From positions 65,357 to 129,356 of the forward strand of contig JBMORU010000001.1 in the NCBI GenBank assembly GCA_049322215.1: a stretch of DNA of 64,000 nt, in the 5' to 3' direction. The notes beneath the pieces were generated by a model. That model was not told where the DNA came from. It saw only the letters and a list, made by a program, of their open reading frames with translations, and searched no databases. This stretch comes from Patescibacteria group bacterium (lineage in GTDB: Bacteria > Patescibacteriota > WWE3 > UBA101185 > UBA10185). Numbering within the stretch: the stretch's first letter is position 1; each line of letters opens with the position of its first letter. Position numbers and translations under genes: made by a program. Positions 37-51,815 of this stretch are shown piece by piece.

Positions 37-2328
37 TTAAGAGTTTATGTTTATTTCTAAAGACTCTTCTTTAGCTTGAGCAGTTAAATTCAAAGGCCGT
101 TTATTAGAGTTTAATATTATTTCTGCAACACTATCTAATAGTTCACTTTCAATTGTCCTGCGTAATGCACGTGCACCATATTCGTCTGAATAACCTTTTT
201 CCAGTAAAAGTTTTTTTGCTTCTGCGGTTACTTTTAGCTTTATACCTTGTTTTCTCAGGTGATCGAGTACATCTTTTAGCAGTACATTTAATATCTTCTT
301 TTGATCTACTTTTTTAAGTTTTTTGAAAACAATTACTTCATCAAAACGATTGATTAGTTCAGGCTTTAGTATTTTCTTTAAATTGTTCCTTAAGTGTTTT
401 TCTATTCTATCGTCAGATATAGGCGCGTTATCAAAACCTATTGTGTTTTCATGAGTTATTTTTGTACCTAAGTTACTCGTTAATACCACTACGGCGTTCG
501 AAAAGTCAAAAGTAGTGCCTTTAGCATCTACTAATTCACCCTCTTCCATAATTTGAAGCAGAATATTTAATACATCATGGTGAGCTTTTTCAATTTCATC
601 AAATAAAACTACTGAGTTAGGGTTTGCATCTATTTTTGTGGTTAATTCACCACCTTCTCCGTATCCTATATATCCCGGAGGAGCCCCCACCAAACGTGCA
701 ATTGTGTGCTTCTCGCCAAAGTCAGACATATCAAGTCGAATTAAAGAATGCGGCCCAAAAGCTTCAGCAGCAAGTAGTTTAGCTAACTCTGTTTTACCAA
801 CCCCTGTAGAACCCAAAAACAAAAAATTACCCAAAGGCCGTTTTTTTGCTCTTAAACCAAGTTTCCCTCTAATTAAAGCTTTAGCTACAGTATCTACAGC
901 ATGATTTTGTCCAATTAATTTCTTTTTTAGTTGCGAAGATAAATTACTCAAACCACTTAAATTTTGCGTGACATTTGACCCTGCATCCTCAGCAACATCA
1001 AACAGCACATAATCTATATCTTTTGTTGATAAAGTAAGTTTTGCTTCATTATCTGAGTTTACAAATAAGTCTTCTTCTAAATGTTTTAAACGGGTTTCTA
1101 GTCTACGAAGTTTAGTGCGTGTCTGTAGTGCAGAGTCATAATCAGAATTATCAAGCAATTTATTAATTTGAGCTCTCAAAAGAAACTCTTTACTTACTAA
1201 TTCCTTATAGCTATCAGGAACACGCTTTTCTTTTACTAACAAATTTGCACAGGCTTGATCTAAAATTTCCAAAGCTTTTTTTGGAAATCTATCTTGTTTT
1301 AATTCCCGCTTAGTAGCCTCATAGGCATGTTTAAAAACTTTACTTGGAATTTTAACATTGTGATGAGCACCTAATATTGCACTTTTTACCGCAAGTATTT
1401 CCATTGTTATCTCCTCGGAAGGTTCATTAACATTTATTAAAGCAAAACCATCGAATATTTGGTCGTTTTCAGAAGAAACCTTATCGTAAAAGGAATTGTT
1501 AATAATTGTTATCATAGGAATGCCTGCAGTTTGTAAGTCAGATTTTAAAATGTTAAATAGCAACGGAACTGTTAAACCTACATTTGTACTTATAAATATA
1601 TTCTGAACGTCTTTTATATACAAAATAACCTTTTTAAAGCTTCTTAGCTCTTCCAGCAATGTTGCTAAACCGTACTCTAACCCTTCTCTATTAGAAATAG
1701 ATGTTATAAAGCCAATTAAATCAAACTCTATAACTTCGTAGTCAACAAGTGCCGGAGGTACTTCCATTAGTTGAATCTGATTAACAAGTAATTCAACCAA
1801 TGTACGCTTGCCTACACCATAATCACCTACAATTAACGGGTTAAAGTCTTCTTTCTGCAGTAAAACTGCAATTATATCTTCGATTTCTTCCCTATATACT
1901 AGGTCTACACGAGCGCTAGATAACTTACGAGAGGTCAAATTTTCACCAAAAGTATCTAATAAAGGCGTTTTCTGAGAATCATGTGAATCGCCACTGTGAG
2001 GAAATGTGCTAAGTTTTACTAATTCACGCTTAATTAGCTCAAAATCAGGAGAATTAGTTAACGAAGCAAGAGCTAATAACAAATGCTCAGTACCAACATA
2101 AACATGACCCAGCTTTAAAGCGTGATAATAGGCTTCTTCCACCATATTATCCATATTTACAGCTCTAGCTCTATTTATGTTTAAACCTGGAATATTCCTT
2201 AGTATCAAAGACGCTAAACCCGAAGTGTTTTGCATTGAATCAAGAACAACTCCAACATCAATGTTAGAAACACCTTCAAGATCACTTAATATGAACTTAG
2301 CTCTTTTTGTTAGCCTGTTTAAACTCAT
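37..2328 (-). CDS. clpC: ClpC/ClpB-like AAA+ chaperone (Clp ATPase subunit); NBD1 Walker A degenerate, NBD2 canonical
   Basis: 763-aa ORF. N-terminal Clp_N-like repeats. NBD2 has Walker A GSTGVGKTELAK and Walker B VVLFDEIEKAH. NBD1 P-loop reads GDYGVGKRTL, which is degenerate. Confidence 0.8.
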   Translation of the reverse strand: MSLNRLTKRAKFILSDLEGVSNIDVGVVLDSMQNTSGLASLILRNIPGLNINRARAVNMDNMVEEAYYHALKLGHVYVGTEHLLLALASLTNSPDFELIKRELVKLSTFPHSGDSHDSQKTPLLDTFGENLTSRKLSSARVDLVYREEIEDIIAVLLQKEDFNPLIVGDYGVGKRTLVELLVNQIQLMEVPPALVDYEVIEFDLIGFITSISNREGLEYGLATLLEELRSFKKVILYIKDVQNIFISTNVGLTVPLLFNILKSDLQTAGIPMITIINNSFYDKVSSENDQIFDGFALINVNEPSEEITMEILAVKSAILGAHHNVKIPSKVFKHAYEATKRELKQDRFPKKALEILDQACANLLVKEKRVPDSYKELVSKEFLLRAQINKLLDNSDYDSALQTRTKLRRLETRLKHLEEDLFVNSDNEAKLTLSTKDIDYVLFDVAEDAGSNVTQNLSGLSNLSSQLKKKLIGQNHAVDTVAKALIRGKLGLRAKKRPLGNFLFLGSTGVGKTELAKLLAAEAFGPHSLIRLDMSDFGEKHTIARLVGAPPGYIGYGEGGELTTKIDANPNSVVLFDEIEKAHHDVLNILLQIMEEGELVDAKGTTFDFSNAVVVLTSNLGTKITHENTIGFDNAPISDDRIEKHLRNNLKKILKPELINRFDEVIVFKKLKKVDQKKILNVLLKDVLDHLRKQGIKLKVTAEAKKLLLEKGYSDEYGARALRRTIESELLDSVAEIILNSNKRPLNLTAQAKEESLEININS

Positions 2329-2412
2329 TTATTTATTTCTGTAGCGGTGATGAAAGCGTAAGCTTTCACCCGCAAAGAAAGAAGATACCACGTACTTTAG
2401 TATGTGGAAGCT

Positions 2413-3525
2413 TCATTCAGAGTCTGCTTGCCTTATACTTAGAGCAAGTTTTTGATTGGTACCGTCTACAAAAGTTACTACCGCAGTAACTTCGTTACCT
2501 TCTTCTAAAGAACCATCCATTTCTGAGATATGAATTAATCCATCTAACCCTTTTTCAAGGTTAACAAAGGCACCAAATGGAACCACTTTACTCACTTTGC
2601 CAGTTACGGTTGTACCTACAGGATATTTTTCTTCAACAGTGTCCCAAGGATTTGGCGTTAAACGTTTTACGCTCAAAGCAAGTTTTTTAGAATCGTCATC
2701 TATTCCTAAAACAACTACACCAATTGGAGACCCTACAGAATAGTAATCACCTGGATGACTTACTTTTTCCCAAGCAATCTCACTAATATGAACTAGACCT
2801 TCTAAGCCTTCCATATCAACAAAAATACCAAAAGGCATTACACCTGTTACAATTCCGTTTAACTTAGCACCTACCTCTACAGAAGCGAGCTTTTCTTCTT
2901 TAACTTCGGGACTATATTCGGTAATCGCATCCTTTTCGGATAAGACTAAACGATTTTTTTCTCGGTCAAATTCAATTACTTTAACTTTTAAAGGTTTTCC
3001 AGCTAAAACTTTTAGTGATTCTTTTAGTTCAGCTTCGCTTCCTGCAGCAAATTTGGCAACATCGTTTGCAAAGTGTACTCTATCTAAGTGAGATAAGGGT
3101 ACAAAACCTCTTAGTCCCATACAGTCAGCTAATAAACCACCTTTGTTGTATTCCAAAATAACAACTTCTAGCACAGAACCATCTTCAAAGGCATCTTCTA
3201 CCACACGCCATTTTCTTTCTTTTTCAGCGCGTTTTAAAGAAAGTACAATATATCCCTGATCGTTTTCTGCTTGTAAAACAGTGGCTAAAACTGTATCACC
3301 AGGGCTTAAATTTTTGTGAGATTTGTCGTTATCACCTAACTCTTCTCCGGTTATAATACCTTCAGATTTAGCACCAACGTCTAACAACAATTCGCCATGG
3401 TCAACACTAACCACAATACCTTCTACTAATTCTCCTGGATAAAATTGCTTAATTTCAAGATTCTTGTCTTTTAAGAGCTTGGTCATTATAGAATCTTCTT
3501 TATGTATTTCACGAGCTTTTGACAT
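2413..3525 (-). CDS. rpsA: 30S ribosomal protein S1 (four S1 domains, short form)
   Basis: 370 aa with repeated S1 OB-fold motifs (GELVEGIVV..., GDTVLATVL..., GFVPLSHL..., GAKLNGIVTGV..., GTTVTGKVSKVVPFGAFV). Confidence 0.8.
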   Translation of the reverse strand: MSKAREIHKEDSIMTKLLKDKNLEIKQFYPGELVEGIVVSVDHGELLLDVGAKSEGIITGEELGDNDKSHKNLSPGDTVLATVLQAENDQGYIVLSLKRAEKERKWRVVEDAFEDGSVLEVVILEYNKGGLLADCMGLRGFVPLSHLDRVHFANDVAKFAAGSEAELKESLKVLAGKPLKVKVIEFDREKNRLVLSEKDAITEYSPEVKEEKLASVEVGAKLNGIVTGVMPFGIFVDMEGLEGLVHISEIAWEKVSHPGDYYSVGSPIGVVVLGIDDDSKKLALSVKRLTPNPWDTVEEKYPVGTTVTGKVSKVVPFGAFVNLEKGLDGLIHISEMDGSLEEGNEVTAVVTFVDGTNQKLALSIRQADSE

Positions 3526-3675
3526 AATATATTTCGTTCACCAAAGATTAAATTATTATAATCCGGTTGGTTTTGTGTTGCTAAATTTAATACTTTAGTG
3601 ATAATGACAACACAAACGAGGTAAATCACTAGTGCGGGGGGATTATAACGTATTTATAAAGATACGTCGAGAATA

Positions 3676-3726
3676 ACAAAAAAAAGACGAGTTTTAACCT
3701 AACTTATTAATAAGCTAAAACTCGTC
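3676..3726 (-). terminator. Rho-independent terminator downstream of the 5S rRNA and the 135-aa gene
   Basis: Inverted repeat gacgagtttta...taaaactcgtc at 3686-3726. On the minus strand it is followed by a run of 8+ T (plus-strand A-tract 3677-3685). Confidence 0.6.
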
Positions 3727-3727
3727 A

Positions 3728-4135
3728 TTAATGCACATAGGCTGCGTGTTTGGCAAAAAATGTTTGAGCAGATGAAAATCCCGGAGGATCAAAAGCTTCA
3801 AACACTTGCCTAAAAGTGAATCCCATGTTTTCACCGTCTTTTAATGCAAGGCGAAAATTACCCAGATATCTAACAAAAAACCTAAAAATCAAGGTGTGTA
3901 TAAATATAACACCAGGACTTTTGAAGTTTCCTTTTACCTGTAGGTTATTAACTAGCTCTTCAAATTCGGGATTGCTTAGTAAACCACGTAGATAAAAGGT
4001 GAGAATTTGGTTGTACCGGCGTGCTGTAACTAAATCAAACACAACCAGTATTGGGTTTCCGTCCAGATCGGGTATAGAAAAAGAATCACCCTCTTTCGCG
4101 AGCCTATAAATGCGTTTAGGATCGTATTTGTGCAT
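3728..4135 (-). CDS. hypothetical protein (135 aa) co-directional with and immediately downstream of 5S rRNA
   Basis: ORF with an AAGGAGAG Shine-Dalgarno 6 nt upstream of the ATG (reverse complement of 4138-4150) and a terminator right after the stop. No recognisable family. Confidence 0.5.
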   Translation of the reverse strand: MHKYDPKRIYRLAKEGDSFSIPDLDGNPILVVFDLVTARRYNQILTFYLRGLLSNPEFEELVNNLQVKGNFKSPGVIFIHTLIFRFFVRYLGNFRLALKDGENMGFTFRQVFEAFDPPGFSSAQTFFAKHAAYVH

Positions 4136-4614: not shown

Positions 4615-7640
<3,026 letters not shown>

Positions 7641-7912
7641 AGAGAATACGCAATTTATATTCAGAGAACACAAATCACGGTATATATTAAAGTCTCGTTG
7701 ACTTTTTACCTTAGTTTTAAAACATAAAGTAAAAAGCGTTTGAGTGACTTTTTGCTATTTGCCTAATGCAAATAAAGAATAAGTCATTTATTCTATATTA
7801 AGTTTACAAAGTACCTCTTTTTACAGAGTCAAAGTTAAAAACTTAATAAACTATATTAAGTTCTTAAATTTAACTACGTACCCAAATTTACAAGCTAAGC
7901 TATGCGATAACT

Positions 7913-7989
7913 TGGTGGACCCGACGGGAGTCGAACCCGTGACCTCCGCAGTGCAAATGCGGCGCTCTAGCCAACTGAGCTACAGGCCC
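7913..7989 (-). tRNA. tRNA-Ala (anticodon TGC), CCA encoded, G3:U70 identity pair present
   Basis: Reverse complement GGGCCTGTAGCTCAGTTGGCTAGAGCGCCGCATTTGCACTGCGGAGGTCACGGGTTCGACTCCCGTCGGGTCCACCA folds as a cloverleaf. Anticodon loop is TTTGCAC. Confidence 0.9.
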
Positions 7990-8201
7990 TCGCCTGTTTA
8001 GTTAAAATATTAATGTTAAGTTGGAATTAAGAGCTTCCGTCAAAAAGCTTTAAACCCGAAAAATCGAGTAGAAGGTAAATTCCCATTCCGTAGGAGTAAA
8101 TTATCACTTTGAGTAAACAATGTCAATAAAATTAATGGGTCTAAAGTTTATAGCAAAAAACTAAAAACTTTAAACCCAAATGTGTCAGAAATGGTTATTG
8201 A

Positions 8202-8588
8202 CTACGCAAGAACAAGCTTACCGTGCCGAGAACTTTTAACAGTATAAGTTTTGCCGCACAAGTGCACAAGCTCCCCTTTAGAAATGTGTGCCATTCCGTA
8301 AACAGTTTGCGCACCACCGCTACCACCAACTTGAACAGAATACTGGCTGTAACCGTTTGAACTTCGAGTATGCAACTGAACTGGCCCCTTATAGGACTGA
8401 AGCTGCAATGACCGACGATCAGTAAAACGCACCCAAAAAGTATCTCCATCGTAAGTTACTGAGTCACCATAGTTTAAACGTTTTGGTCCAAACAATGCTG
8501 TGGGGAGTTTTACGCCATCAACATAAACGTTATTGTACTTTTTTTGCTGACCATTACCTTGCCCTGTCAAAGTATCTTTCTTAGACAT
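8202..8588 (-). CDS. hypothetical protein (128 aa) embedded in the 16S-23S spacer
   Basis: ORF preceded by a strong SD (TAAGGAGAGACA-ATG, reverse complement of 8589-8603). Gly/Ser/Tyr-rich with no family recognised. Locally GC-richer than the surrounding spacer. Confidence 0.55.
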   Translation of the reverse strand: MSKKDTLTGQGNGQQKKYNNVYVDGVKLPTALFGPKRLNYGDSVTYDGDTFWVRFTDRRSLQLQSYKGPVQLHTRSSNGYSQYSVQVGGSGGAQTVYGMAHISKGELVHLCGKTYTVKSSRHGKLVLA

Positions 8589-8747
8589 TGTCTCTCCTTA
8601 GATAAATATTGGGATTTGTAAATTTCCTATGTTATAGGGTAAGGGCTATGGTAAAACATTGTATTGGCGTTGTCAATTAAGCAAAAACTATTACATACTC
8701 TTTACATATTCATGTTAATATATTAAAACGTATATGCCCTTTAGTAA

Positions 8748-8824
8748 GGGCTCGTAGCTCAGTTGGTTAGAGCGCTCCTCTGATAAGGGAGAGGTCGATG
8801 GTTCGAATCCATCCGAGCCCACCA
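8748..8824 (+). tRNA. tRNA-Ile (anticodon GAT), CCA encoded, on the strand opposite to the rRNA genes
   Basis: GGGCTCGTAGCTCAGTTGGTTAGAGCGCTCCTCTGATAAGGGAGAGGTCGATGGTTCGAATCCATCCGAGCCCACCA gives a clean cloverleaf with anticodon loop CTGATAA. Confidence 0.9.
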
Positions 8825-8861
8825 AGCTGTAAATCCACTAAACAAGTTAATATAAAACTTT

Positions 8862-8886
8862 AAAAAAAAGAGCACCGGAGTGCTAA
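8862..8886. terminator. Bidirectional hairpin terminator between tRNA-Ile (+) and the NUDIX gene (-)
   Basis: aaaaaaaag-AGCACC-gga-GTGCT-aacttttattt. The GC hairpin is flanked by an A-tract on one side and a T-rich tract on the other. On the minus strand it reads hairpin followed by TTTTTTTT. Confidence 0.5.
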
Positions 8887-8889
8887 CTT

Positions 8890-9303
8890 TTATTTGTTGT
8901 TAATAAATTCTAAAACAGGAGAAGCTAGATCGTAATAGACAAAATTAGAAAATAAGTCAGGTTCTACCCATCTAAACTGTTCAACTTCAGAAGTATCAAT
9001 TAACAATGTATATGCTTCAGACACTAGAGTACAAGCAAAGTAATGCAATACTACTTTTTGTGAGGGAATAATAATTTCATGAATTTTGCGAACTACCGAA
9101 ACTTCATGTCCAGTTTCTTCGTATGCTTCACGTACTGCTGCCTCTTCATGAGTTTCATCATCATAAACTTTACCCCCAGGAAATGTCCAGGAGAGTCTAT
9201 TTTCTAACCCATGTAATGAGGGATCATAGCGTTTTACTAACAAAACGCTGCCTGTAGGGTTTTTAACTACAGATAAAGCTACTTGTGTTTGATTATCTTC
9301 CAT
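8890..9303 (-). CDS. NUDIX hydrolase
   Basis: 137 aa with a Nudix box GGKVYDDETHEEAAVREAYEETGHEV (GX5EX7REUXEEXGU). Confidence 0.8.
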   Translation of the reverse strand: MEDNQTQVALSVVKNPTGSVLLVKRYDPSLHGLENRLSWTFPGGKVYDDETHEEAAVREAYEETGHEVSVVRKIHEIIIPSQKVVLHYFACTLVSEAYTLLIDTSEVEQFRWVEPDLFSNFVYYDLASPVLEFINNK

Positions 9304-9570
9304 AAATTATCTTAATTTCTATATCGTTTACACTTAGCGCTTCAAGGAATAATAAGCAAAAAGAATGTCTCATTTAAGGGTTTAGGCTCACCCTTGAACC
9401 TGCTCATCCAACCCCGTGAGGGGGGTGGTGTACAACTACTACCTATGAGCTGCTCGATAGTAGCGTATGTTTTTTCTTTCATCGGTCTTTTTAAGACACA
9501 CTGTCAAACACAAAGGATTGACCATCTTAAAAAGGTTCCGCGATCAAAAACATAATATTCTTTCTCTTTA

Positions 9571-11035
<1,465 letters not shown>

Positions 11036-11266: not shown

Positions 11267-13618
11267 ATGCAAAAAGCGATCGTAGTTTCTATGCTCATTA
11301 TTACATTTTTCTCTATAAATACAAGTAAAGCTTTTGGACAAGAAATAATACCTACTACAGAAAATGGCTTTTACATTACCTCTGTCGAAATTACACCTTG
11401 GGGAATTATGAGTGGAGAATTTGATCAACGCGCGTGGAAAAACCCTTTTAATGGCATAAAAATTTCAAAAGATAAAGGCGTCTCCTGGACAGCGTCAGGA
11501 CTAAAAAATAGAGGTATTACAGATTTACACTACCAAAACGGTATTATATATGCAGCTACATACTATTTTGTAGAACAAGAAGCCGGTCTTTTTGTATCTT
11601 ACGATGCAGGAATAAACTGGACACATTTAGGGAACAACTTTTCAACTACAAAAGTAACTACAAGCAACGACACTATTTACCTAGGAACATATAGCCATGG
11701 GCTATGGAAGCATAGCAACGCAACAGGGTGGAAACAACTCATTGGCGATGGTTACTTTGGCCCTAAAATAACCCTCATAAAAGCAAAAGACAGCTACATA
11801 GTTGCACAAACATCGGTAGGTGTTTATGAATCAAATGATTTTGGAGAAACCTGGACAGTACCAGAAGTTTTTAAACAAACTACTATAAACGACGTTATCT
11901 TTATAGACGAGTTAACTATAGCTGCTACTAAAACTGGAATTTATACATCATCAGATAAGGGTATTACGTGGAATAAACAAAACAGTTTGAATGAAAAAAA
12001 CATAACAACATTATTCGCAACACCCAAACACATGTACGCCAGTGTTGAACAAAAACCTAATGAATTTGAGCTTTTGGTATCTTTAAACTCAGGAACTACT
12101 TGGAATAAATTTGCAACATTACCCATAAACAAGCCAAATGCCATAAAAGACATGACTTATATGTTTTCATTTCCATCAAAAATATATTTTGTGAGCCAAA
12201 CAAACGGAATATTTTACTTTTTAGAAGAATCAAACAACATAAAGGAGCCTTTGCTTAGAATTCCATGGCACTATAAAAAAGAATCTGAACTTGTCTCAAC
12301 TATAACATCTTATTTTGATCACGAATATCCATTCTCCGGGTATAAATACTACACAGAACCACCAGCTGTTAATGCAACAACTGTAAATTATCTTGGACAA
12401 AGAGCCAGAGAACCAATTTTATACTATAGTAAACACGATGGTGTGGATTTTGCACTGCCTTACGGTACTGAAATTGTAGCGGCACATTCTGGGCAGGCAA
12501 CTTATGCGTACGAAGAAAATGGTTTGGGTCATCATATAAATGTAGTCAGCGAAAACGGATTTCAAACTACATATGCACATATGCAAGAAAGTGGTTTAGC
12601 CACTAAAACAACTACTTGGATTGAAGAAGGAAATAAAGTTGGATTAGTAGGACTAACAGGAAAAACTACAGGACCCCACTTACACTTTGCAGTAACATAC
12701 GACAAAAATGAAAATGAAAACTTTACTGATAATGAAACAAATGGAAAAACAGATCCTTTTGGATGGCAAACACCGTTTTATGCTGATCCATGGGCAACAT
12801 ACACCTGGTTGGATAGTTTAGGTACCCATAACGGCATGGAAAGCTATTATATGTGGAAAAACAACCTACCAAAAAGCACTTTTAATATTACTAACAATTT
12901 GCAAAATATCACGCACGAAAACATAAGTATGCAGCTTCCTGAAAACTTTACACAACACGAAATCACTATTTCTATTCAAAACCATTCGATACCTGCAGTA
13001 CCACCTGAAAAAAACAAACTTGTTTATATAACAGGAACATCCTTTTTACTTAATGCCTACAACAACTTAGGGCAAGAACCTCCCGAGTTTTTAAAGCCTG
13101 TTCGAATTGAAATTGACTTTAGTGAAGCTGATTTACAAAACATTTTGCTGAATACACTTAGTATTTACTACCTAAATGACTCAACAAACAGTTGGGAAAA
13201 AGTTAACTCAGTATTAGATTTAGTAAACAAAAAACTTACAGCAGAAACTTCCCACTTTTCAAACTATGCTGTTTTTGCTGAAAAAATAGATTATGACGCC
13301 CCAAATACAATCATTGCAGTAATAGGTGCAAAAACAGGAAACTGGTTTACACAGTATCCAACTATAGAACTTAGTTATAATGATGCAGACGTTAACTATG
13401 TGTTTTATAAATTAAACAACGAAGTTACTTGGCGTGAGTATAGTGAACCATTTGAACTACAAAAAGAAGGAATAAATAAAATAGAATATAAGGCGGTAGA
13501 TGGCAACAACAACTGGGAAAATGCACACGACATTGTTATACCTATAGATACGAAAAATAAATGGAAAGATACTTCCAAGGTCTCAGAAATAGTAGTTGGC
13601 ACTGAAACTCAAAATTAA
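11267..13618 (+). CDS. Secreted BNR/Asp-box repeat protein fused to an M23 (LytM-type) metallopeptidase domain
   Basis: 783 aa with a signal peptide (MQKAIVVSMLIITFFSINTSKAFG). At least five S-x-D-x-G-x-T-W BNR repeats (SKDKGVSWT, SYDAGINWT, SNDFGETWT, SSDKGITWN, SLNSGTTWN). M23 motifs HDGVDFALPYGTEIVAAHSG and GPHLHFAV. Confidence 0.75.
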   Translation: MQKAIVVSMLIITFFSINTSKAFGQEIIPTTENGFYITSVEITPWGIMSGEFDQRAWKNPFNGIKISKDKGVSWTASGLKNRGITDLHYQNGIIYAATYYFVEQEAGLFVSYDAGINWTHLGNNFSTTKVTTSNDTIYLGTYSHGLWKHSNATGWKQLIGDGYFGPKITLIKAKDSYIVAQTSVGVYESNDFGETWTVPEVFKQTTINDVIFIDELTIAATKTGIYTSSDKGITWNKQNSLNEKNITTLFATPKHMYASVEQKPNEFELLVSLNSGTTWNKFATLPINKPNAIKDMTYMFSFPSKIYFVSQTNGIFYFLEESNNIKEPLLRIPWHYKKESELVSTITSYFDHEYPFSGYKYYTEPPAVNATTVNYLGQRAREPILYYSKHDGVDFALPYGTEIVAAHSGQATYAYEENGLGHHINVVSENGFQTTYAHMQESGLATKTTTWIEEGNKVGLVGLTGKTTGPHLHFAVTYDKNENENFTDNETNGKTDPFGWQTPFYADPWATYTWLDSLGTHNGMESYYMWKNNLPKSTFNITNNLQNITHENISMQLPENFTQHEITISIQNHSIPAVPPEKNKLVYITGTSFLLNAYNNLGQEPPEFLKPVRIEIDFSEADLQNILLNTLSIYYLNDSTNSWEKVNSVLDLVNKKLTAETSHFSNYAVFAEKIDYDAPNTIIAVIGAKTGNWFTQYPTIELSYNDADVNYVFYKLNNEVTWREYSEPFELQKEGINKIEYKAVDGNNNWENAHDIVIPIDTKNKWKDTSKVSEIVVGTETQN

Positions 13619-14673
13619 AAGGTAATAACACCACCACCAATTACCAAGTCTTTTTTGTAAACTACAGCACTTTGACCTTCAGCAACACCAAATACAGGTT
13701 TTGCTAGTTTAATTGTCCAAACCCCATTATTTTCTTCAAGAGTACCTTTATGAAACTCACCTAAATGCCTAATTCTTATTAAATATTCACCACCTTCAAT
13801 AGGTCTTTCATTTATCCAATGCGAGTCTTTTATGTTAAATATGTCAAACTTACAATCCTCTTTAGTTCCAACAACAATTTGATTTTTGGGTACAATTTTT
13901 TTGACCACATATAAAGGCGCACCGTGATAAGTTTTTGTGCTAAATCCGTGTCTTTGACCAATTGTGTAAAAAGGTATTCCATCATGCTCTCCAATTACAT
14001 TACCTTCTAAATCAAGTACCTCACCTTTTTTCTCTTTAATGCGCTTTTTTAAAAAGTCAGATATTTTTACTTCGCCAATAAAACAAATACCCACGCTGTC
14101 GGGCTTATCAAAAGTATGGAGTCCTACCTTTTCTGCTGTTTTTCGAACTTCTTCTTTTTTTAACGCGCCAAGAGGAAACAGCGTTTTTTCTAATACATGT
14201 TGCTCAAGCAAATACAAAAAGTAAGACTGATCTTTGCTATCATCAACCCCCTTTAATAAATCACCATTTTGAGAGCGTGCGTAATGCCCTGTTGCCACAT
14301 AATCAAACTCATTTTCTATAGCCCAATCAAAAAACAAACCAAACTTAATTTCTTTATTGCACATTACATCGGGGTTAGGAGTACGACCTAATTCATACTC
14401 TTTGTAAAAGTAATCAATGACTCTATTTTTATAAGCTTCAATAAAATCTAAATATTCAAACTTTATACCAAGTTTAGAAGCAACTTTCACCGCATCAGCC
14501 CTATCTTCGTCGGCTTTACAACCATCTGCTTTGGAATCCCAACATTGCATATAAATTCCGGTTACATCGTAACCTTGCTCTTTTAATAAATATGCAGCAA
14601 CAGAAGAATCAACCCCACCACTGAGGCCAACTGCAACTTTTATTAAAGTATTTGCATTTTGTGCTTTCATCAA
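13615..14673 (-). CDS. mnmA: tRNA-specific 2-thiouridylase MnmA
   Basis: 352 aa. PP-loop VAVGLSGGVDSSVAAYLL, conserved CWD/CNKEIKF motifs. Confidence 0.85.
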   Translation of the reverse strand: MMKAQNANTLIKVAVGLSGGVDSSVAAYLLKEQGYDVTGIYMQCWDSKADGCKADEDRADAVKVASKLGIKFEYLDFIEAYKNRVIDYFYKEYELGRTPNPDVMCNKEIKFGLFFDWAIENEFDYVATGHYARSQNGDLLKGVDDSKDQSYFLYLLEQHVLEKTLFPLGALKKEEVRKTAEKVGLHTFDKPDSVGICFIGEVKISDFLKKRIKEKKGEVLDLEGNVIGEHDGIPFYTIGQRHGFSTKTYHGAPLYVVKKIVPKNQIVVGTKEDCKFDIFNIKDSHWINERPIEGGEYLIRIRHLGEFHKGTLEENNGVWTIKLAKPVFGVAEGQSAVVYKKDLVIGGGVITF

Positions 14674-14701: not shown

Positions 14702-15187
14702 TTAAGGTAAAGAAATATCACATTTAGCAGCAGCTACCGTCATAACTTCGATTTCTTCTTTTATTATGCCTAAGGCTTCATCAAAACTTAATTTTCTATA
14801 GTTATGCGGAAAATAGTGAAAAACCTGATTTCTACCCTTTTTCCATACTTGCCAAAGTTTATCGGTAACGTCAGCGCCCCCTTTATCGTGTAAACATAGC
14901 TTTTGATAAATAGAAGTGTGTTCTTTCATAAACATGGGGTTTAAAATGCGCCCTATTCTTATTGAATCACCATAATATTCATCTTCTTTTATTAAATCTA
15001 AATCAAGAAAAAGTTGCTTTAAAAAGCCTTCATAAGCTTTTGAAAAAGGAAATACCAAAAAGGAGTAATCAGAAACACTTTTAAAGTGTACAACGTCGGT
15101 GAGCAATTGTTCCCCATCGAGTATTAGTTCTCTTTGATCTTCAGCCAAGTACTGCCAAAGATGTGATTTTTTATCTACTACTTCCAC
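14702..15187 (-). CDS. hypothetical protein (161 aa) with a C-terminal R-x4-H-Y motif (HEPN-like?)
   Basis: ORF, predicted mostly helical. GRNQVFHYFPH near the C-terminus resembles the Rx4-6H HEPN signature. This is a weak assignment. Confidence 0.45.
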   Translation of the reverse strand: MEVVDKKSHLWQYLAEDQRELILDGEQLLTDVVHFKSVSDYSFLVFPFSKAYEGFLKQLFLDLDLIKEDEYYGDSIRIGRILNPMFMKEHTSIYQKLCLHDKGGADVTDKLWQVWKKGRNQVFHYFPHNYRKLSFDEALGIIKEEIEVMTVAAAKCDISLP

Positions 15188-45182: not shown

Positions 45183-47045
45183 TTATCCTTCAAGTAATTC
45201 TCTGTATTCGTCTTCTAAAATAGTTTCTTTTTCTAATAAGGCACCGGAAATTCTATCAAGAGTGTTTCGGTGTTTATTTAATATTTCCTTAGCTTTTTCA
45301 TAGGAATTCTCTATTATTTTGCTTACTTCTTTATCTATTTCTGCTGCAACCTGTTGGCTGTAGTGTAATGCTTCACCCATTTCTCTAGCTAACCACACTC
45401 TTTGGTTTTCTCCATCAAATGAAATAGGCCCTAAAGAACTCATACCAAATTCTCTAACCATTTTACGGGCAATTTCAGTTGCACGTTCAATGTCGTTTGC
45501 AGCACCAACAGTCATTTCATTAAATACTAATTCTTCTGCAGCACGCCCACCTAAAGCAGTGGAAATTAATGATAGTAAGCGGGTTTTTGTTTCGTTATAA
45601 CGATCTCTTTCGGGTGGAAAACTTGTATGCCCTAAAGAACCACCTCGTGCTACTATAGAAACTCTATGAACTGTGTCCATTTCAGGTAAATTAGATGCTA
45701 CAAGAGCATGCCCGGCCTCGTGATATGCAACCATTTTCTTTTCCGTATCAGATTGAAGTGTTTTACGCTCAGACCCCATGGTTACTTTAAGTGCAGCTTC
45801 TTCTAAATCTGCAGGAGAAATTGCGTCTTTTCTGTCACGTGCTGCTAATATTGCTGCTTCATTTAGCATGTTTTCAATGTCAGCACCACTAAAGCCTACT
45901 GTTCTTTTTGCTATTCTTTCAACATTTACTTCTGGTGTAAAAGGTTTACCACGCATATGAATTTGAATAATCCCTTTACGAGAATCAAGATCTGGCATTG
46001 GAATAGTTATGCGTCTATCAAAACGGCCTGCACGCACTAAAGCAGGATCAAGCATATCAGGTCGGTTTGTTGCCGCTAAAACTATTACATCAGTTCTTGG
46101 ATCAAAACCATCCATTTCTATTAATATTTGATTAAGTGTTTGCTCACGCTCATCATGACCACCACCAATACCCATACCACGTTGCCTTCCTATTGCGTCT
46201 ATTTCATCAATAAATATCAAACTAGGCTGATTTTCTTTAGCCATTCTAAACAAGTCACGGGCTCTTGCAGAACCAACACCTACAAGCATTTCCATAAATT
46301 CACTACCTGCTACAGAAAAAAACGGAACATTTGCTTCGCCGGCAATTGCTTTAGCCAACAAAGTTTTACCGACTCCAGCAGGACCTACCAGTAAAACACC
46401 CTTTGGAATACGAGCACCTAGCTTACGATAGCGCTGAGGATACTTTAAGAAATCAACTATTTCCTTTAATTCCGTTTTGGCCTCATCTACTCCGGCCACA
46501 TCGTTAAACGTAGTGGTAGGAGAATCTTTACTAAACATTTTTGCTCTTGATTTTCCAAATGACAAAATATCGCCACTTGCACCTCGCATTTGTCTAAAAA
46601 TGAAAAATATTAAAAGAATAGGAAGTCCAAAAGTTATTAAAGGGGTAATTACCTGTTCAAATGTAGGACTTTGATCAACTGTTAACTCACCCGCTATTTT
46701 ACTTCTGTCTATATCGTTATTGGCTAGTATTTCATCAAAACTAATTGTAGATTCTTTTTTAGAAGTAAAAGACTCACCATCTCTTAGTAAAACTTCAATT
46801 GTGTCTTGCGCTACCGTTATGTCTTGAACTTGATCTTCTTTAATTGAAGTAATCACATCACTAATAGGACGCTCGTCACTTAAAGTTTGCTGCTGTAAAA
46901 AATAGCCTAAAACTACATAGCCTATTAAAATTACAAAAATATAAAAGAAAATGTTATTAAAAATACTTGGATTTTTTGGAGCTTTTATAGGAGTTTTTAT
47001 TTTATTTTTTATGTTTTTTTGTTGATTTTCTTGGTTATTTTGCAT
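45183..47045 (-). CDS. ftsH: ATP-dependent zinc metalloprotease FtsH
   Basis: 620 aa. Two N-terminal TM segments, AAA Walker A GPAGVGKT, SRH region and zinc site HEAGHAL. Confidence 0.9.
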   Translation of the reverse strand: MQNNQENQQKNIKNKIKTPIKAPKNPSIFNNIFFYIFVILIGYVVLGYFLQQQTLSDERPISDVITSIKEDQVQDITVAQDTIEVLLRDGESFTSKKESTISFDEILANNDIDRSKIAGELTVDQSPTFEQVITPLITFGLPILLIFFIFRQMRGASGDILSFGKSRAKMFSKDSPTTTFNDVAGVDEAKTELKEIVDFLKYPQRYRKLGARIPKGVLLVGPAGVGKTLLAKAIAGEANVPFFSVAGSEFMEMLVGVGSARARDLFRMAKENQPSLIFIDEIDAIGRQRGMGIGGGHDEREQTLNQILIEMDGFDPRTDVIVLAATNRPDMLDPALVRAGRFDRRITIPMPDLDSRKGIIQIHMRGKPFTPEVNVERIAKRTVGFSGADIENMLNEAAILAARDRKDAISPADLEEAALKVTMGSERKTLQSDTEKKMVAYHEAGHALVASNLPEMDTVHRVSIVARGGSLGHTSFPPERDRYNETKTRLLSLISTALGGRAAEELVFNEMTVGAANDIERATEIARKMVREFGMSSLGPISFDGENQRVWLAREMGEALHYSQQVAAEIDKEVSKIIENSYEKAKEILNKHRNTLDRISGALLEKETILEDEYRELLEG

Positions 47046-47066: not shown

Positions 47067-48122
47067 TTAAAAGAGGGGTAGTTGCATCCCATCACGAACT
47101 TGATTTAAAACGCCTTGAACTTCTCTTCTAGTTCTTGCGGTTCCATCTTGCAGTATGTCTTTAACCTCATCTAAATTACTTTCGTAATGAAAATACCTCT
47201 CGCGTATTGGTTCAATAAATTCTTTTATTGCAAAAAACAACTTTTCCTTAACCTCAACATCACCTACGGTACCTTTTTCATAACGATCTTTTAAGTCAGC
47301 TACTTCCTCGATGTTGGAGTTAAATGCATCGTGATATATAAACACAGGATTTCCCTCTACGGTACCCTTGTCAGTAGCACGCAGTCTGTTTGGATCTGTA
47401 TACATACTCATTATTTTTTTCTTTAAAGAAGCATCTTCTTCATTTAAGTAAATAGTGTTGTCTAAAGATTTGCTCATTTTGGCATTTCCATCTAAACCAA
47501 CTAAACGGGCAATTCTACCAATTTTGGCTTCAGGTTCTTTAAAAACAGGTTTATATGTATGATTAAATCTTCTTGCTATTTCACGAGTTAATTCAATATG
47601 TGGCAATTGATCTTCTCCCACGGGAACTAAATCAGCGTTAACACCTAAAATATCCGCAGCCATTAAAACAGGAAAATTTAGAAATCCCAATGAAAAATTA
47701 TCACCTAGTTGTTTTTCACGAATTTCGTCTTTTATAGTGGGGTTACGCAACGCTCTGTTATGAGAAACCAACATAGTAAAAATTAAAGCGAGTTCAAATA
47801 CCTCAGGAATTAATGATTCTACGTACATCGTAACTTTTTTTGGATCCAACCCTACTGCCAAATTACCAATAGCTACCTCTAAAATTGATTGAGAAACTAC
47901 TTTAGGGTTTTCTACGTATTTTGGGTAAGCATAAGCATGCATGTCGGCAAGAATTATGAAAGTTTCATATTCGTCCTGAAGCTTAACACGATTTTCTAGC
48001 GATCCAACATAGTGCCCTATATGAAGCTTTCCAGTTGTGTTATCTCCGGTAAGGATTCGTTTTTTTGCTGACATTAAAATGATTTTAACATTAAATAAGA
48101 TCTTTGGTGCAGCTTGGTGCAC
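47067..48122 (-). CDS. trpS: Tryptophan--tRNA ligase
   Basis: 351 aa class I aaRS. HIGH-like TGKLHIGHYVG and KMSKS. Confidence 0.85.
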   Translation of the reverse strand: MHQAAPKILFNVKIILMSAKKRILTGDNTTGKLHIGHYVGSLENRVKLQDEYETFIILADMHAYAYPKYVENPKVVSQSILEVAIGNLAVGLDPKKVTMYVESLIPEVFELALIFTMLVSHNRALRNPTIKDEIREKQLGDNFSLGFLNFPVLMAADILGVNADLVPVGEDQLPHIELTREIARRFNHTYKPVFKEPEAKIGRIARLVGLDGNAKMSKSLDNTIYLNEEDASLKKKIMSMYTDPNRLRATDKGTVEGNPVFIYHDAFNSNIEEVADLKDRYEKGTVGDVEVKEKLFFAIKEFIEPIRERYFHYESNLDEVKDILQDGTARTRREVQGVLNQVRDGMQLPLF

Positions 48123-48169: not shown

Positions 48170-48246
48170 TGGTGCCAACGGGTGGAATCGAACCACCGAC
48201 CTGACGCGTATGAAACGTCCGCTCTAACCGACTGAGCTACGTTGGC
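48170..48246 (-). tRNA. tRNA-Met (anticodon CAT), elongator-type acceptor; could alternatively be a lysidine-modified Ile2
   Basis: Reverse complement GCCAACGTAGCTCAGTCGGTTAGAGCGGACGTTTCATACGCGTCAGGTCGGTGGTTCGATTCCACCCGTTGGCACCA. Anticodon loop TTCATAC. Pairing 1G:72C. Confidence 0.8.
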
Positions 48247-49569: not shown

Positions 49570-49653
49570 AAATACTATATTAACCTAATATAATTGGATT
49601 TAAAAAACTTCTTTGGTTGCGGGGCCCGGATTTGCACCGGGACCTTCAGATTA

Positions 49654-49727
49654 TGAGCCTGACGAGGTACTATTCCTCCACCCCGCGTCGTTAAGTAAAG
49701 AATGCATATTACAATGCGTGGGTAGTG
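49654..49727 (-). tRNA. Initiator tRNA-fMet (anticodon CAT), C1:A72 mismatch, CCA encoded
   Basis: Reverse complement CGCGGGGTGGAGGAATAGTACCTCGTCAGGCTCATAATCTGAAGGTCCCGGTGCAAATCCGGGCCCCGCAACCA. It closely parallels the E. coli tRNA-fMet ends (CGCGGGGTGGAG...CCCCGCAACCA). Confidence 0.85.
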
Positions 49728-50268: not shown

Positions 50269-51132
50269 ATGATTAAGTTAGAAAAAGCCCACAAGAGCTT
50301 TGTAGACCACTTACAAGATCTCAAAAGATCAGAGTCTACAATAATAGCTTATAGTAAAGACGTGGAGCAATTAATTGAACACCTCCTGGAAAAAGGTGTG
50401 AATCTTGTTCACGAAATAGAAACACATCACTTAGAAGACTTTATGGGTAAATTAGCCAACGAAAGCTATACGCCTAAGTCAATTTCCAGAAAAACCAACT
50501 CTACTAAAACCTTTTTTAGGTTTTTAATAGCAGAAGGTTATATTGAGGTAAATGCTGCAGACCAACTAAAACATCCTAAGGTTGAAGTGAAAGCACCAAG
50601 AATTCTATCTAGACTAGAATACGGAGCTTTACGCGATGTAGCTAAGGAAGATAATAGAACGTTTGCAATAATCGAAGTCTTGCTTCAAACAGGAATTAGA
50701 ATTTCGGAACTTGCCCAAATTAAACTAGAAGATGTGGACCTTAAAAACGGAACATTAACTATACCTGAAAGGGGTAACAACATGAGTAGAAGAATACCTC
50801 TTAATAAGGCTGTAGTTTCGGCTATCTCTTCTTACTTAGAAGAAAGACCAGAGATTGAAAGTGAATACTTATTCATAACAAAAACTGGACGTCCCCTTTT
50901 AGTAAGAAACATCAGAGCTACAATCGACAGGTACTTTAAAACTGCCGGTATTTCTGATGCTAAGGTAAATGACCTAAGACACACTTTTGTAGCCTTTCAC
51001 TTGGCTCAAGGTACAAATCTTTTGACAGTATCTAAAATTGCTGGTCACAAAAGAATTTCTACAACAGAAAGATACCTTGAATATATTGAAAAGGTTACAG
51101 AAGAAGAAAAAACGGAATTAGGAGTTCTTTAA
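50269..51132 (+). CDS. Tyrosine site-specific recombinase (XerC/XerD-like, phage integrase family)
   Basis: 287 aa. N-terminal SAM-like domain. Catalytic residues R (GIRISEL), LRHTF (HxxR), GHKRIS, and a Tyr in ERYLEY. Confidence 0.8.
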   Translation: MIKLEKAHKSFVDHLQDLKRSESTIIAYSKDVEQLIEHLLEKGVNLVHEIETHHLEDFMGKLANESYTPKSISRKTNSTKTFFRFLIAEGYIEVNAADQLKHPKVEVKAPRILSRLEYGALRDVAKEDNRTFAIIEVLLQTGIRISELAQIKLEDVDLKNGTLTIPERGNNMSRRIPLNKAVVSAISSYLEERPEIESEYLFITKTGRPLLVRNIRATIDRYFKTAGISDAKVNDLRHTFVAFHLAQGTNLLTVSKIAGHKRISTTERYLEYIEKVTEEEKTELGVL

Positions 51133-51739: not shown

Positions 51740-51815
51740 TGGTGGGTGATCCTGGGCTCGAACCAGGGACCGCTCGTGTATAAGACGAGTGCTCTACCAA
51801 CTGAGCTAATCACCC
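51740..51815 (-). tRNA. tRNA with anticodon TAT (UAU), formally tRNA-Ile reading AUA
   Basis: Reverse complement GGGTGATTAGCTCAGTTGGTAGAGCACTCGTCTTATACACGAGCGGTCCCTGGTTCGAGCCCAGGATCACCCACCA. Perfect acceptor, D and T arms, 5-bp anticodon stem CTCGT/ACGAG and loop CTTATAC. Confidence 0.75.

Follow-up and report, generated by a model that had tools for sequence, protein, structure and literature searches.

Which tRNA reads the codon AUA in a small bacterial genome, and is lysidine required for this task? The question was raised by a tRNA gene with the anticodon TAT located in a 64-kb stretch of genomic DNA, which was analyzed in full and is referred to as the window. Its G+C content is about 36%. 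The window originates from a WWE3-related genome of the Patescibacteria (CPR). Its gene content is typical for CPR, with a separate 5'-3' exonuclease, an ATP-dependent DNA ligase, a split transketolase and numerous ORFs without an assigned family. Its TrpS (335-aa form) is identical to an NCBI protein of a 'Patescibacteria group bacterium' MAG, and proteins with 63-74% identity to it come, among others, from several genomes of candidate division WWE3. The GC skew of the window reverses near 24 kb and again near 44 kb, where the coding strand also switches (minus, plus, minus); it tracks the direction of transcription and bears no mark of a replication origin. The following features are referred to below.

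8748-8824, plus strand: tRNA-Ile(GAU), the major isoacceptor for AUU and AUC
13615-14673, minus strand: mnmA, encoding the tRNA 2-thiouridine-34 synthase (NF001138, 417 bits)
45183-47045, minus strand: ftsH (TIGR01241, 742 bits)
47067-48122, minus strand: trpS (TIGR00233, 300 bits), directly upstream of ftsH
48170-48246, minus strand: elongator tRNA-Met(CAU) with the acceptor stem GCCAACG (ARAGORN)
49614-49687, minus strand: initiator tRNA-fMet(CAU) with a C1xA72 mismatch (ARAGORN; Rfam, 55.7 bits)
50269-51132, plus strand: XerC/XerD-like tyrosine recombinase (family scan)
51740-51815, minus strand: tRNA-Ile(UAU), the predicted AUA decoder (ARAGORN, Rfam, cloverleaf fold and an HMM of 127 other tRNA-Ile(UAU) genes)

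The tRNA gene and its amino acid identity

Six tRNA genes were detected in the window by ARAGORN, one of which, at exactly 51740-51815 (minus strand), is a tRNA-Ile with the anticodon tat. The gene is intact and 76 nt long, and the predicted transcript is GGGUGAUUAGCUCAGUUGGUAGAGCACUCGUCUUAUACACGAGCGGUCCCUGGUUCGAGCCCAGGAUCACCCACCA. It scores 70.1 bits with the Rfam model RF00005 (gathering score 29), covers the full model and contains no non-canonical pair. The minimum-free-energy fold is a cloverleaf (-27.6 kcal/mol, z = -2.5). The acceptor stem is G1-G2-G3-U-G-A-U, the anticodon stem is CUCGU/ACGAG, and the anticodon loop consists of C32-U33-U34-A35-U36-A37-C38 (CUUAUAC). The discriminator is A73 and the CCA end is encoded in the gene; an encoded CCA end occurs in all six tRNA genes of the window. 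A well-folding tRNA with a TAT anticodon had been proposed for this position in the preliminary description, and ARAGORN, the Rfam score and the predicted fold agree on it. A different anticodon or a pseudogene-like score, which had been named there as reasons to discard the gene, were not found by these programs. The tRNA-Ile(UAU) at 51740-51815 is a genuine, intact gene. A scan of its strand for sigma-70 consensus sequences, which is crude for Patescibacteria, revealed no promoter. A near-identical copy of the locus is present in the Logan assembly of SRR32167788.

It is very improbable that this gene is a relic without function, an assembly artefact or an att site left behind by an element that entered through the neighbouring tyrosine recombinase. 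tRNA genes often serve as integration sites, and the gene of the XerC-like recombinase is located only about 600 bp from the tRNA. However, the perfect cloverleaf, the retention of all conserved tRNA positions and the high Rfam score argue against a relic, and AUA, at 3% of the codons, needs a decoder. Mis-assembly is contradicted by the identical tRNA sequence in the independent Logan assembly. The recombinase is also encoded beside tRNA-Ile(tat) in at least 12 loci, with protein identities of 39-70% (tblastn), and as this pairing is kept in a dozen divergent genomes the att-site reading was rejected. The order tRNA-Ile(tat), recombinase, fMet, Met(CAU), followed by ftsH at a distance of 5-6 kb, is common to the window and to loci of WS6/Dojkabacteria. 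The recombinase is a conserved neighbour of tRNA-Ile(UAU) in related lineages and not a sign of recent integration.

The tRNA was also analyzed for its isoleucine identity, which the preliminary description had assumed. The tRNA-Ile(UAU) and the tRNA-Ile(GAU) of the window share G1-G2-G3:C70-C71-C72, A73 and C27-U28-C29/G41-A42-G43, whereas the elongator CAU tRNA has the acceptor stem GCCAACG and the anticodon stem GACGU/GCGUC. For a quantitative comparison, 241 tRNAs were scored with an HMM built from 127 tRNA-Ile(UAU) genes, from which the copy of the window was left out. The tRNA-Ile(UAU) of the window reached 58.6 bits and the tRNA-Ile(GAU) 60.3 bits, whereas tRNAs for Val, Ala, Met, Asn and every other isotype reached at most 50.1 bits. 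The elongator CAU tRNA of the window, with 43.7 bits, falls inside the range of the Val, Ala and Met tRNAs. The shared stem features, A73 and the HMM score suggest that the body of the tRNA-Ile(UAU) is Ile-like, and the assumed isotype is thereby supported. A BLAST comparison of the UAU and CAU tRNAs with E. coli genomes had tRNA-Val and tRNA-Lys as best matches; it is uninformative on the isotype because the matches ran through the generic D and T arms.

The tRNA-Ile(GAU) is part of a 16S-23S spacer of about 1.9 kb (window positions 7630-9572) that is not a plain spacer. A small, putatively NUDIX-like ORF (about 9303-8890, minus strand; motif recognised by eye in the translation) and another small ORF (about 8588-8204, also minus strand) flank the tRNA-Ile(GAU) at 8748-8824, which runs against the rRNA genes; a tRNA-Ala(UGC) on the rRNA strand comes next.

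AUA is clearly used in this genome, as had been stated before: ATA accounts for 448 of the 14,644 codons in 36 long ORFs, corresponding to 30.6 per 1000 codons and 41% of the isoleucine codons. The meaning of the codon was assessed by comparing the 21 ATA columns of the ftsH gene of the window with 36 FtsH homologues. The homologues have AUU or AUC in 41%, valine codons in 24%, ATA in 14%, leucine codons in 10% and methionine in 2.5% of the cases; at the ATG columns of the same gene methionine makes up 30%. This conservation pattern indicates that AUA specifies isoleucine. A tRNA(UAU) that is not specific for isoleucine, for example a Met-accepting tRNA in a code with AUA reassigned as in many mitochondria, would be conceivable in Patescibacteria, as altered genetic codes occur in some of them, such as UGA read as glycine in SR1 (PMC3812714). 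Yet the AUA columns of ftsH align with isoleucine and valine codons and hardly with methionine, the body of the tRNA scores close to tRNA-Ile(GAU) and unlike Met tRNAs, and A73 and the G1-G3 acceptor stem are common to both Ile tRNAs. Reassignment is therefore regarded as extremely unlikely.

Occurrence of tRNA-Ile(UAU) in GTDB genomes

One genome per GTDB species was scanned with a pattern that combined a common D arm and an unconstrained anticodon stem with the loop CTTATA and GGTC. At least 120 loci of about 8 kb each were obtained; as no variation was allowed in the D arm and at positions 32-37, this number is not a census. All 120 loci listed contain a tRNA-Ile(tat) according to ARAGORN. 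At least 83 of them bear lineage names of Patescibacteria, including Saccharibacteria, Kaiser-, Taylor-, Nomura-, Uhr-, Magasanik-, Falkow-, Vogel-, Dojka-/WS6, Peri-/Peregrinibacteria and Paceibacteria/Parcubacteria. For 23 others the lineage name is missing or doubtful, and several of these share the synteny of CPR. The remaining 14 belong to Dormibacterota, Chloroflexota/Limnocylindrus, Planctomycetota, Ignavibacteria, Gemmatimonadaceae, Abditibacteriaceae, Actinosynnema, a Bacilli MAG and two archaea. Among the 119 distinct tRNA-Ile(UAU) sequences, 99.4% of the pairs are canonical, compensatory changes are abundant in three stems and A73 is present in 118. The maintenance of pairing through compensatory changes indicates that tRNA-Ile(UAU) is a selected gene family and not noise. 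tRNA-Ile(tat) genes that were found independently of the pattern have other D arms, which indicates that the pattern under-samples rather than over-samples these genes.

The distribution is suggestive of an enrichment of tRNA-Ile(UAU) in Patescibacteria, and by these sequences the gene appears to be usual in this group and not a rarity for the lineage of the host. This differs from the literature. A count from 2013 lists nine bacterial species without tilS (PMC3575796), the TAT anticodon was found in 19 species of tRNADB-CE in 2014 (PMC4013482), and a preprint from 2026 still refers to bacterial tRNA-Ile(UAU) as 'rare cases' (bioRxiv 10.64898/2026.02.03.703510). The same view had been taken over in the preliminary description, which confined the gene to a few lineages; with at least 83 of the 120 listed GTDB loci assigned to Patescibacteria, it does not hold for this organism.

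Two further observations concern individual loci. MAGs titled 'uncultured Gammaproteobacteria/Pseudomonadales' (L003, L017, L033, L047, L066, L067, L078, L103 and L105, the last one a chromosome of 931 kb) look like mislabelled Patescibacteria; the tRNA-Ile(tat)/Met/fMet cluster of L017 equals that of the 'Patescibacteria group' locus L068. The matches from Dormibacterota and Chloroflexota (Limnocylindrus; L024, L073, L039, L094 and L077) carry U38 (loop CUUAUAU) and have near-identical sequences. Both phyla are placed next to CPR in some phylogenies.

TilS, ftsH and the decoding of AUA

If AUA were read in the usual bacterial way, a tRNA-Ile2(CAU) and TilS would be expected. The window harbors two CAU tRNAs, the initiator tRNA-fMet and a Met-type tRNA, and a third CAU tRNA of the Ile2 type was not detected in the 64 kb by ARAGORN. 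The earlier annotation of two nearby CAT tRNAs was correct as to their existence and the position of the elongator, but its initiator coordinates (49654-49727) are off by 40 nt, as the gene is located at 49614-49687. The UAU tRNA and the two CAU tRNAs are three separate genes in the ARAGORN prediction, as had been described. The initiator type is evident from pair 1-72, which was flagged as non-canonical in the Rfam alignment. The acceptor stem of the tRNA at 48170-48246 resembles the GCCAGCG stem of a Met-type tRNA in the two TilS-bearing loci L134 and L204, where this tRNA stands beside fMet and a separate CAU tRNA with a GGG-type acceptor stem. The HMM of tRNA-Ile(UAU) genes was rejected as a classifier of tRNA-Ile2(CAU), for the putative Ile2 tRNAs of TilS contigs score only 31-49 bits, no better than Met tRNAs; the assignment of the tRNA at 48170 thus rests on the orthology of the acceptor stem, by which it is most likely a Met-type tRNA and not a substrate for lysidine formation.

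The initiator tRNA is atypical in that A29-U41, G30-C40 and G31-U39 replace the three G-C pairs. It also has an unusual D arm, GGAGGAAUAGUACCUC, and reaches only 55.7 bits with Rfam. Other CPR initiators in the collected loci have A29-U41, G30-C40 and G31-C39.

No tilS was found in the 64-kb window by NCBIfam and Pfam scans of 40 ORFs, by tblastn and phmmer searches with E. coli TilS, by the PP-loop motif or by a profile of Patescibacteria TilS. The only protein with a PP-loop motif (SGGxDS) in the window is MnmA, which was ruled out as a TilS candidate by its NF001138 score of 417 bits and by the lack of a match to the TilS profile. The slot directly upstream of ftsH is occupied by trpS and not by tilS. 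No match labelled WWE3 is included in the best 120 of 7,883 matches of the TilS profile search.

The neighbourhood of ftsH deserves attention in this context. Many bacteria have tilS in the classical arrangement tilS-(hpt)-ftsH, which makes a linkage of tRNA-Ile(tat) to ftsH notable. ftsH is present in 48 of the 120 listed GTDB loci with tRNA-Ile(tat); in 36 of the 120 the start of the tRNA follows the end of ftsH within 1 kb, and a tRNA-Val(GAC) often comes next. In addition, metagenome contigs were scanned with a profile of CPR FtsH, and the resulting 80 ftsH loci were searched with the Patescibacteria TilS profile. A TilS ORF was detected in 37 of these loci, none of which contains tRNA-Ile(tat), and tRNA-Ile(tat) in seven, none of which contains TilS (Fisher one-sided p = 0.010). 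Six of the seven carry the tRNA just downstream of ftsH and one is arranged like the window. None of the 128 loci with a tat tRNA, the window included, yielded a TilS in searches with the Patescibacteria TilS profile, with E. coli TilS (tblastn/phmmer) and for the PP-loop motif. The negative result with E. coli TilS for the window and the 120 loci was uninformative alone, before positive controls were available; for the Patescibacteria profile the 37 TilS proteins that it detected in other ftsH loci serve as such a control. TilS and tRNA-Ile(tat) co-occur in none of 208 loci.

In a neighbor-joining tree of FtsH, one large clade comprises most of the tat loci, and a separate long branch holds the window together with its nearest relatives and the loci of WS6. 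The TilS-bearing loci L134 and L156 branch beside the large tat clade. Their TilS proteins score 189 and 169 bits with TIGR02432 (cutoff 93.6) and have 327 and 378 amino acids, which points to genuine but short enzymes. The TilS of L156 is an NCBI protein of a 'Patescibacteria group bacterium' with relatives in 'Candidatus Berkelbacteria'. Three further TilS genes that were picked solely by TilS similarity, labelled Patescibacteria in one case and Berkelbacteria in another and located on a 560-kb contig in the third, are each positioned directly upstream of ftsH. The same position was found for tilS in every Patescibacteria TilS contig examined (L134, L156, L204, L205 and L207/L208), the proteins having a size of about 320-380 amino acids. 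A tRNA-Ile(tat) was not found in these contigs within the 10 kb read on either side. Most of these regions harbor three CAU tRNAs; among the contigs picked by TilS similarity alone, L205 is the exception. These are the initiator, an elongator with GCCAGCG or GGCUGCG and a third tRNA with a GGG...CCC-A73 acceptor stem (GGGCCCG, GGGCGCG or GGGCCUG); the sole CAU tRNA seen in L205, with GGGACCA, is of the same type. We take this third CAU tRNA to be the putative tRNA-Ile2(CAU) of the TilS contigs. Its counterpart in the window carries T34. The apparatus for AUA is thus tied to ftsH in two ways, either by an adjoining tRNA-Ile(UAU) or by a short TilS encoded directly upstream, and never by both in the loci examined.

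L204, a TilS-bearing Patescibacteria-like contig, additionally contains a 90-nt tRNA-like gene downstream of murJ (14790-14879), for which ARAGORN reports a two-base anticodon 'ac'. Possibly this tRNA contains an intron or is aberrant in another way.

The absence of tilS and of an Ile2-type CAU tRNA from the window, together with trpS in the slot of every Patescibacteria tilS inspected, makes a lysidine-free system likely. From a window that covers 64 kb of a genome of about 1.1 Mb, we consider it probable that AUA is decoded without lysidine in the host. The only serious rival is redundant decoding, with tilS and tRNA-Ile2(CAU) encoded elsewhere in the genome and the UAU tRNA as a supplementary reader of AUA in a transitional state. 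About 94% of the genome lies outside the region examined, TilS is kept by some Patescibacteria, and a co-occurrence of both systems has been reported in a few bacteria and proposed to be transitional in Lactobacillus casei and L. plantarum (PMC3575796). However, all tilS genes of Patescibacteria that were examined lie directly upstream of ftsH, where the window has trpS, the two systems are found together in none of the 208 loci, no TilS labelled WWE3 is among the best 120 matches of two TilS searches, and redundancy would be unlikely to persist in a genome of about 1 Mb. Redundant decoding is thus considered unlikely. The gene is probably a functional tRNA-Ile(UAU) of a WWE3-related member of the Patescibacteria, which most likely replaces tRNA-Ile2(CAU) and TilS as in Mycoplasma mobile.

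For such a lysidine-free system, the following mechanism is proposed. The tRNA-Ile(UAU) would be charged with isoleucine by IleRS and would read AUA via U34:A pairing, while AUU and AUC would be read by tRNA-Ile(GAU) and AUG by the Met-type CAU tRNA. It would stand in for the usual bacterial combination of tRNA-Ile2(CAU) and the lysidine synthetase TilS, and tilS would be missing from the rest of the genome. Misreading of AUG might be avoided by competition with tRNA-Met, by the ribosome or by a modification of U34. An IleRS that accepts U34 would be expected to have Arg or Lys at the position of Trp905 in the E. coli enzyme (Arg865 in M. mobile) or to be of the IleRS2 type. An IleRS gene was not found in the 64-kb window. 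IleRS was also considered as a neighbour of tRNA-Ile(tat), but the class-I synthetases encoded there in bacterial loci are ValRS, and IleRS was found in one archaeal locus only. Two matches among the listed GTDB loci are labelled 'archaeon', one of which adjoins IleRS: in the archaeal MAG L030 (788-kb contig; 863-3775 and 3810-3849) the tRNA-Ile(UAU) is located directly beside IleRS (TIGR00392, 791 bits).

Significance and comparison with known systems

The locus alone is of small significance, as it encodes a normal tRNA of a kind first characterized in Mycoplasma mobile. The collected loci, however, suggest that a whole superphylum, and with it a sizeable share of bacterial diversity, mostly relies on the UAU solution. 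On balance, we lean towards the view that most Patescibacteria decode AUA by tRNA-Ile(UAU) after the loss of TilS and tRNA-Ile2(CAU), and that a minority, Berkelbacteria-like, keeps a short TilS upstream of ftsH and a third CAU tRNA. If this is true, no lysidine-free clade of bacteria would come near CPR in size, against the view of TilS as near-universal and evolutionarily stable. TilS has been found in 98% of the bacteria surveyed (PMC6063277). No paper linking lysidine or TilS to CPR, Patescibacteria or Saccharibacteria was found in the literature searched; the phylum-wide pattern and its mutual exclusion with tilS at ftsH therefore appear to be undescribed. As tRNA-Ile(UAU) also occurs in Dormibacterota and in some Chloroflexota matches, it might be useful as a phylogenetic marker. 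For annotation pipelines and for lists of essential genes or genes used for completeness estimates, the pattern would mean that tilS is not to be expected in CPR genomes. It also raises the questions of how AUG escapes reading as isoleucine, whether U34 is modified and which features of IleRS permit charging.

A UAU anticodon for AUA is also found in archaeal tRNA-Ile(UAU) (Nanoarchaeum, Korarchaeum) and, as pseudouridine-A-pseudouridine, in a eukaryotic tRNA. In contrast to these, the tRNA of the window is of the bacterial type and has no intron. With the canonical system of tRNA-Ile2(CAU) and TilS (k2C34), including the short TilS of Berkelbacteria, the window system would share the reading of AUA as isoleucine. 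It also shares with the TilS-bearing Patescibacteria the neighbourhood of ftsH and of initiator and elongator Met tRNAs, and the GGG...CCC-A73 stem of its UAU tRNA resembles that of their putative tRNA-Ile2(CAU). The difference lies in position 34, which is T instead of C, so that a modification of C34 is neither possible nor needed, and in the lack of TilS in the window.

In Bifidobacterium and Neorickettsia, tRNA-Ile(UAU) occurs without tilS and together with a eukaryote-type IleRS2 (PMC3575796). A lysidine-free reading of AUA by a UAU tRNA extends there across a genus or lineage, which is likely to apply here as well; the trait of these bacteria is explained by the horizontally acquired IleRS2. 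The closest parallel is the tRNA-Ile2(UAU) of Mycoplasma mobile, which decodes AUA independently of TilS (Taniguchi et al. 2013, PMC3575796). Both are genome-encoded bacterial Ile tRNAs with a UAU anticodon and A37, in small AT-rich genomes with frequent AUA, and in both cases tilS was not found at the place where relatives have retained it. For M. mobile the unmodified U34, Arg865 of IleRS as a determinant and the discrimination of AUG by the ribosome have been shown by experiment (PMC3575796), whereas the system of the window is predicted from its sequence and belongs to an unrelated lineage, Patescibacteria/WWE3 instead of Mollicutes. Moreover, the trait of M. mobile is a late loss in one species, whereas that of the Patescibacteria looks ancestral to a very large clade.
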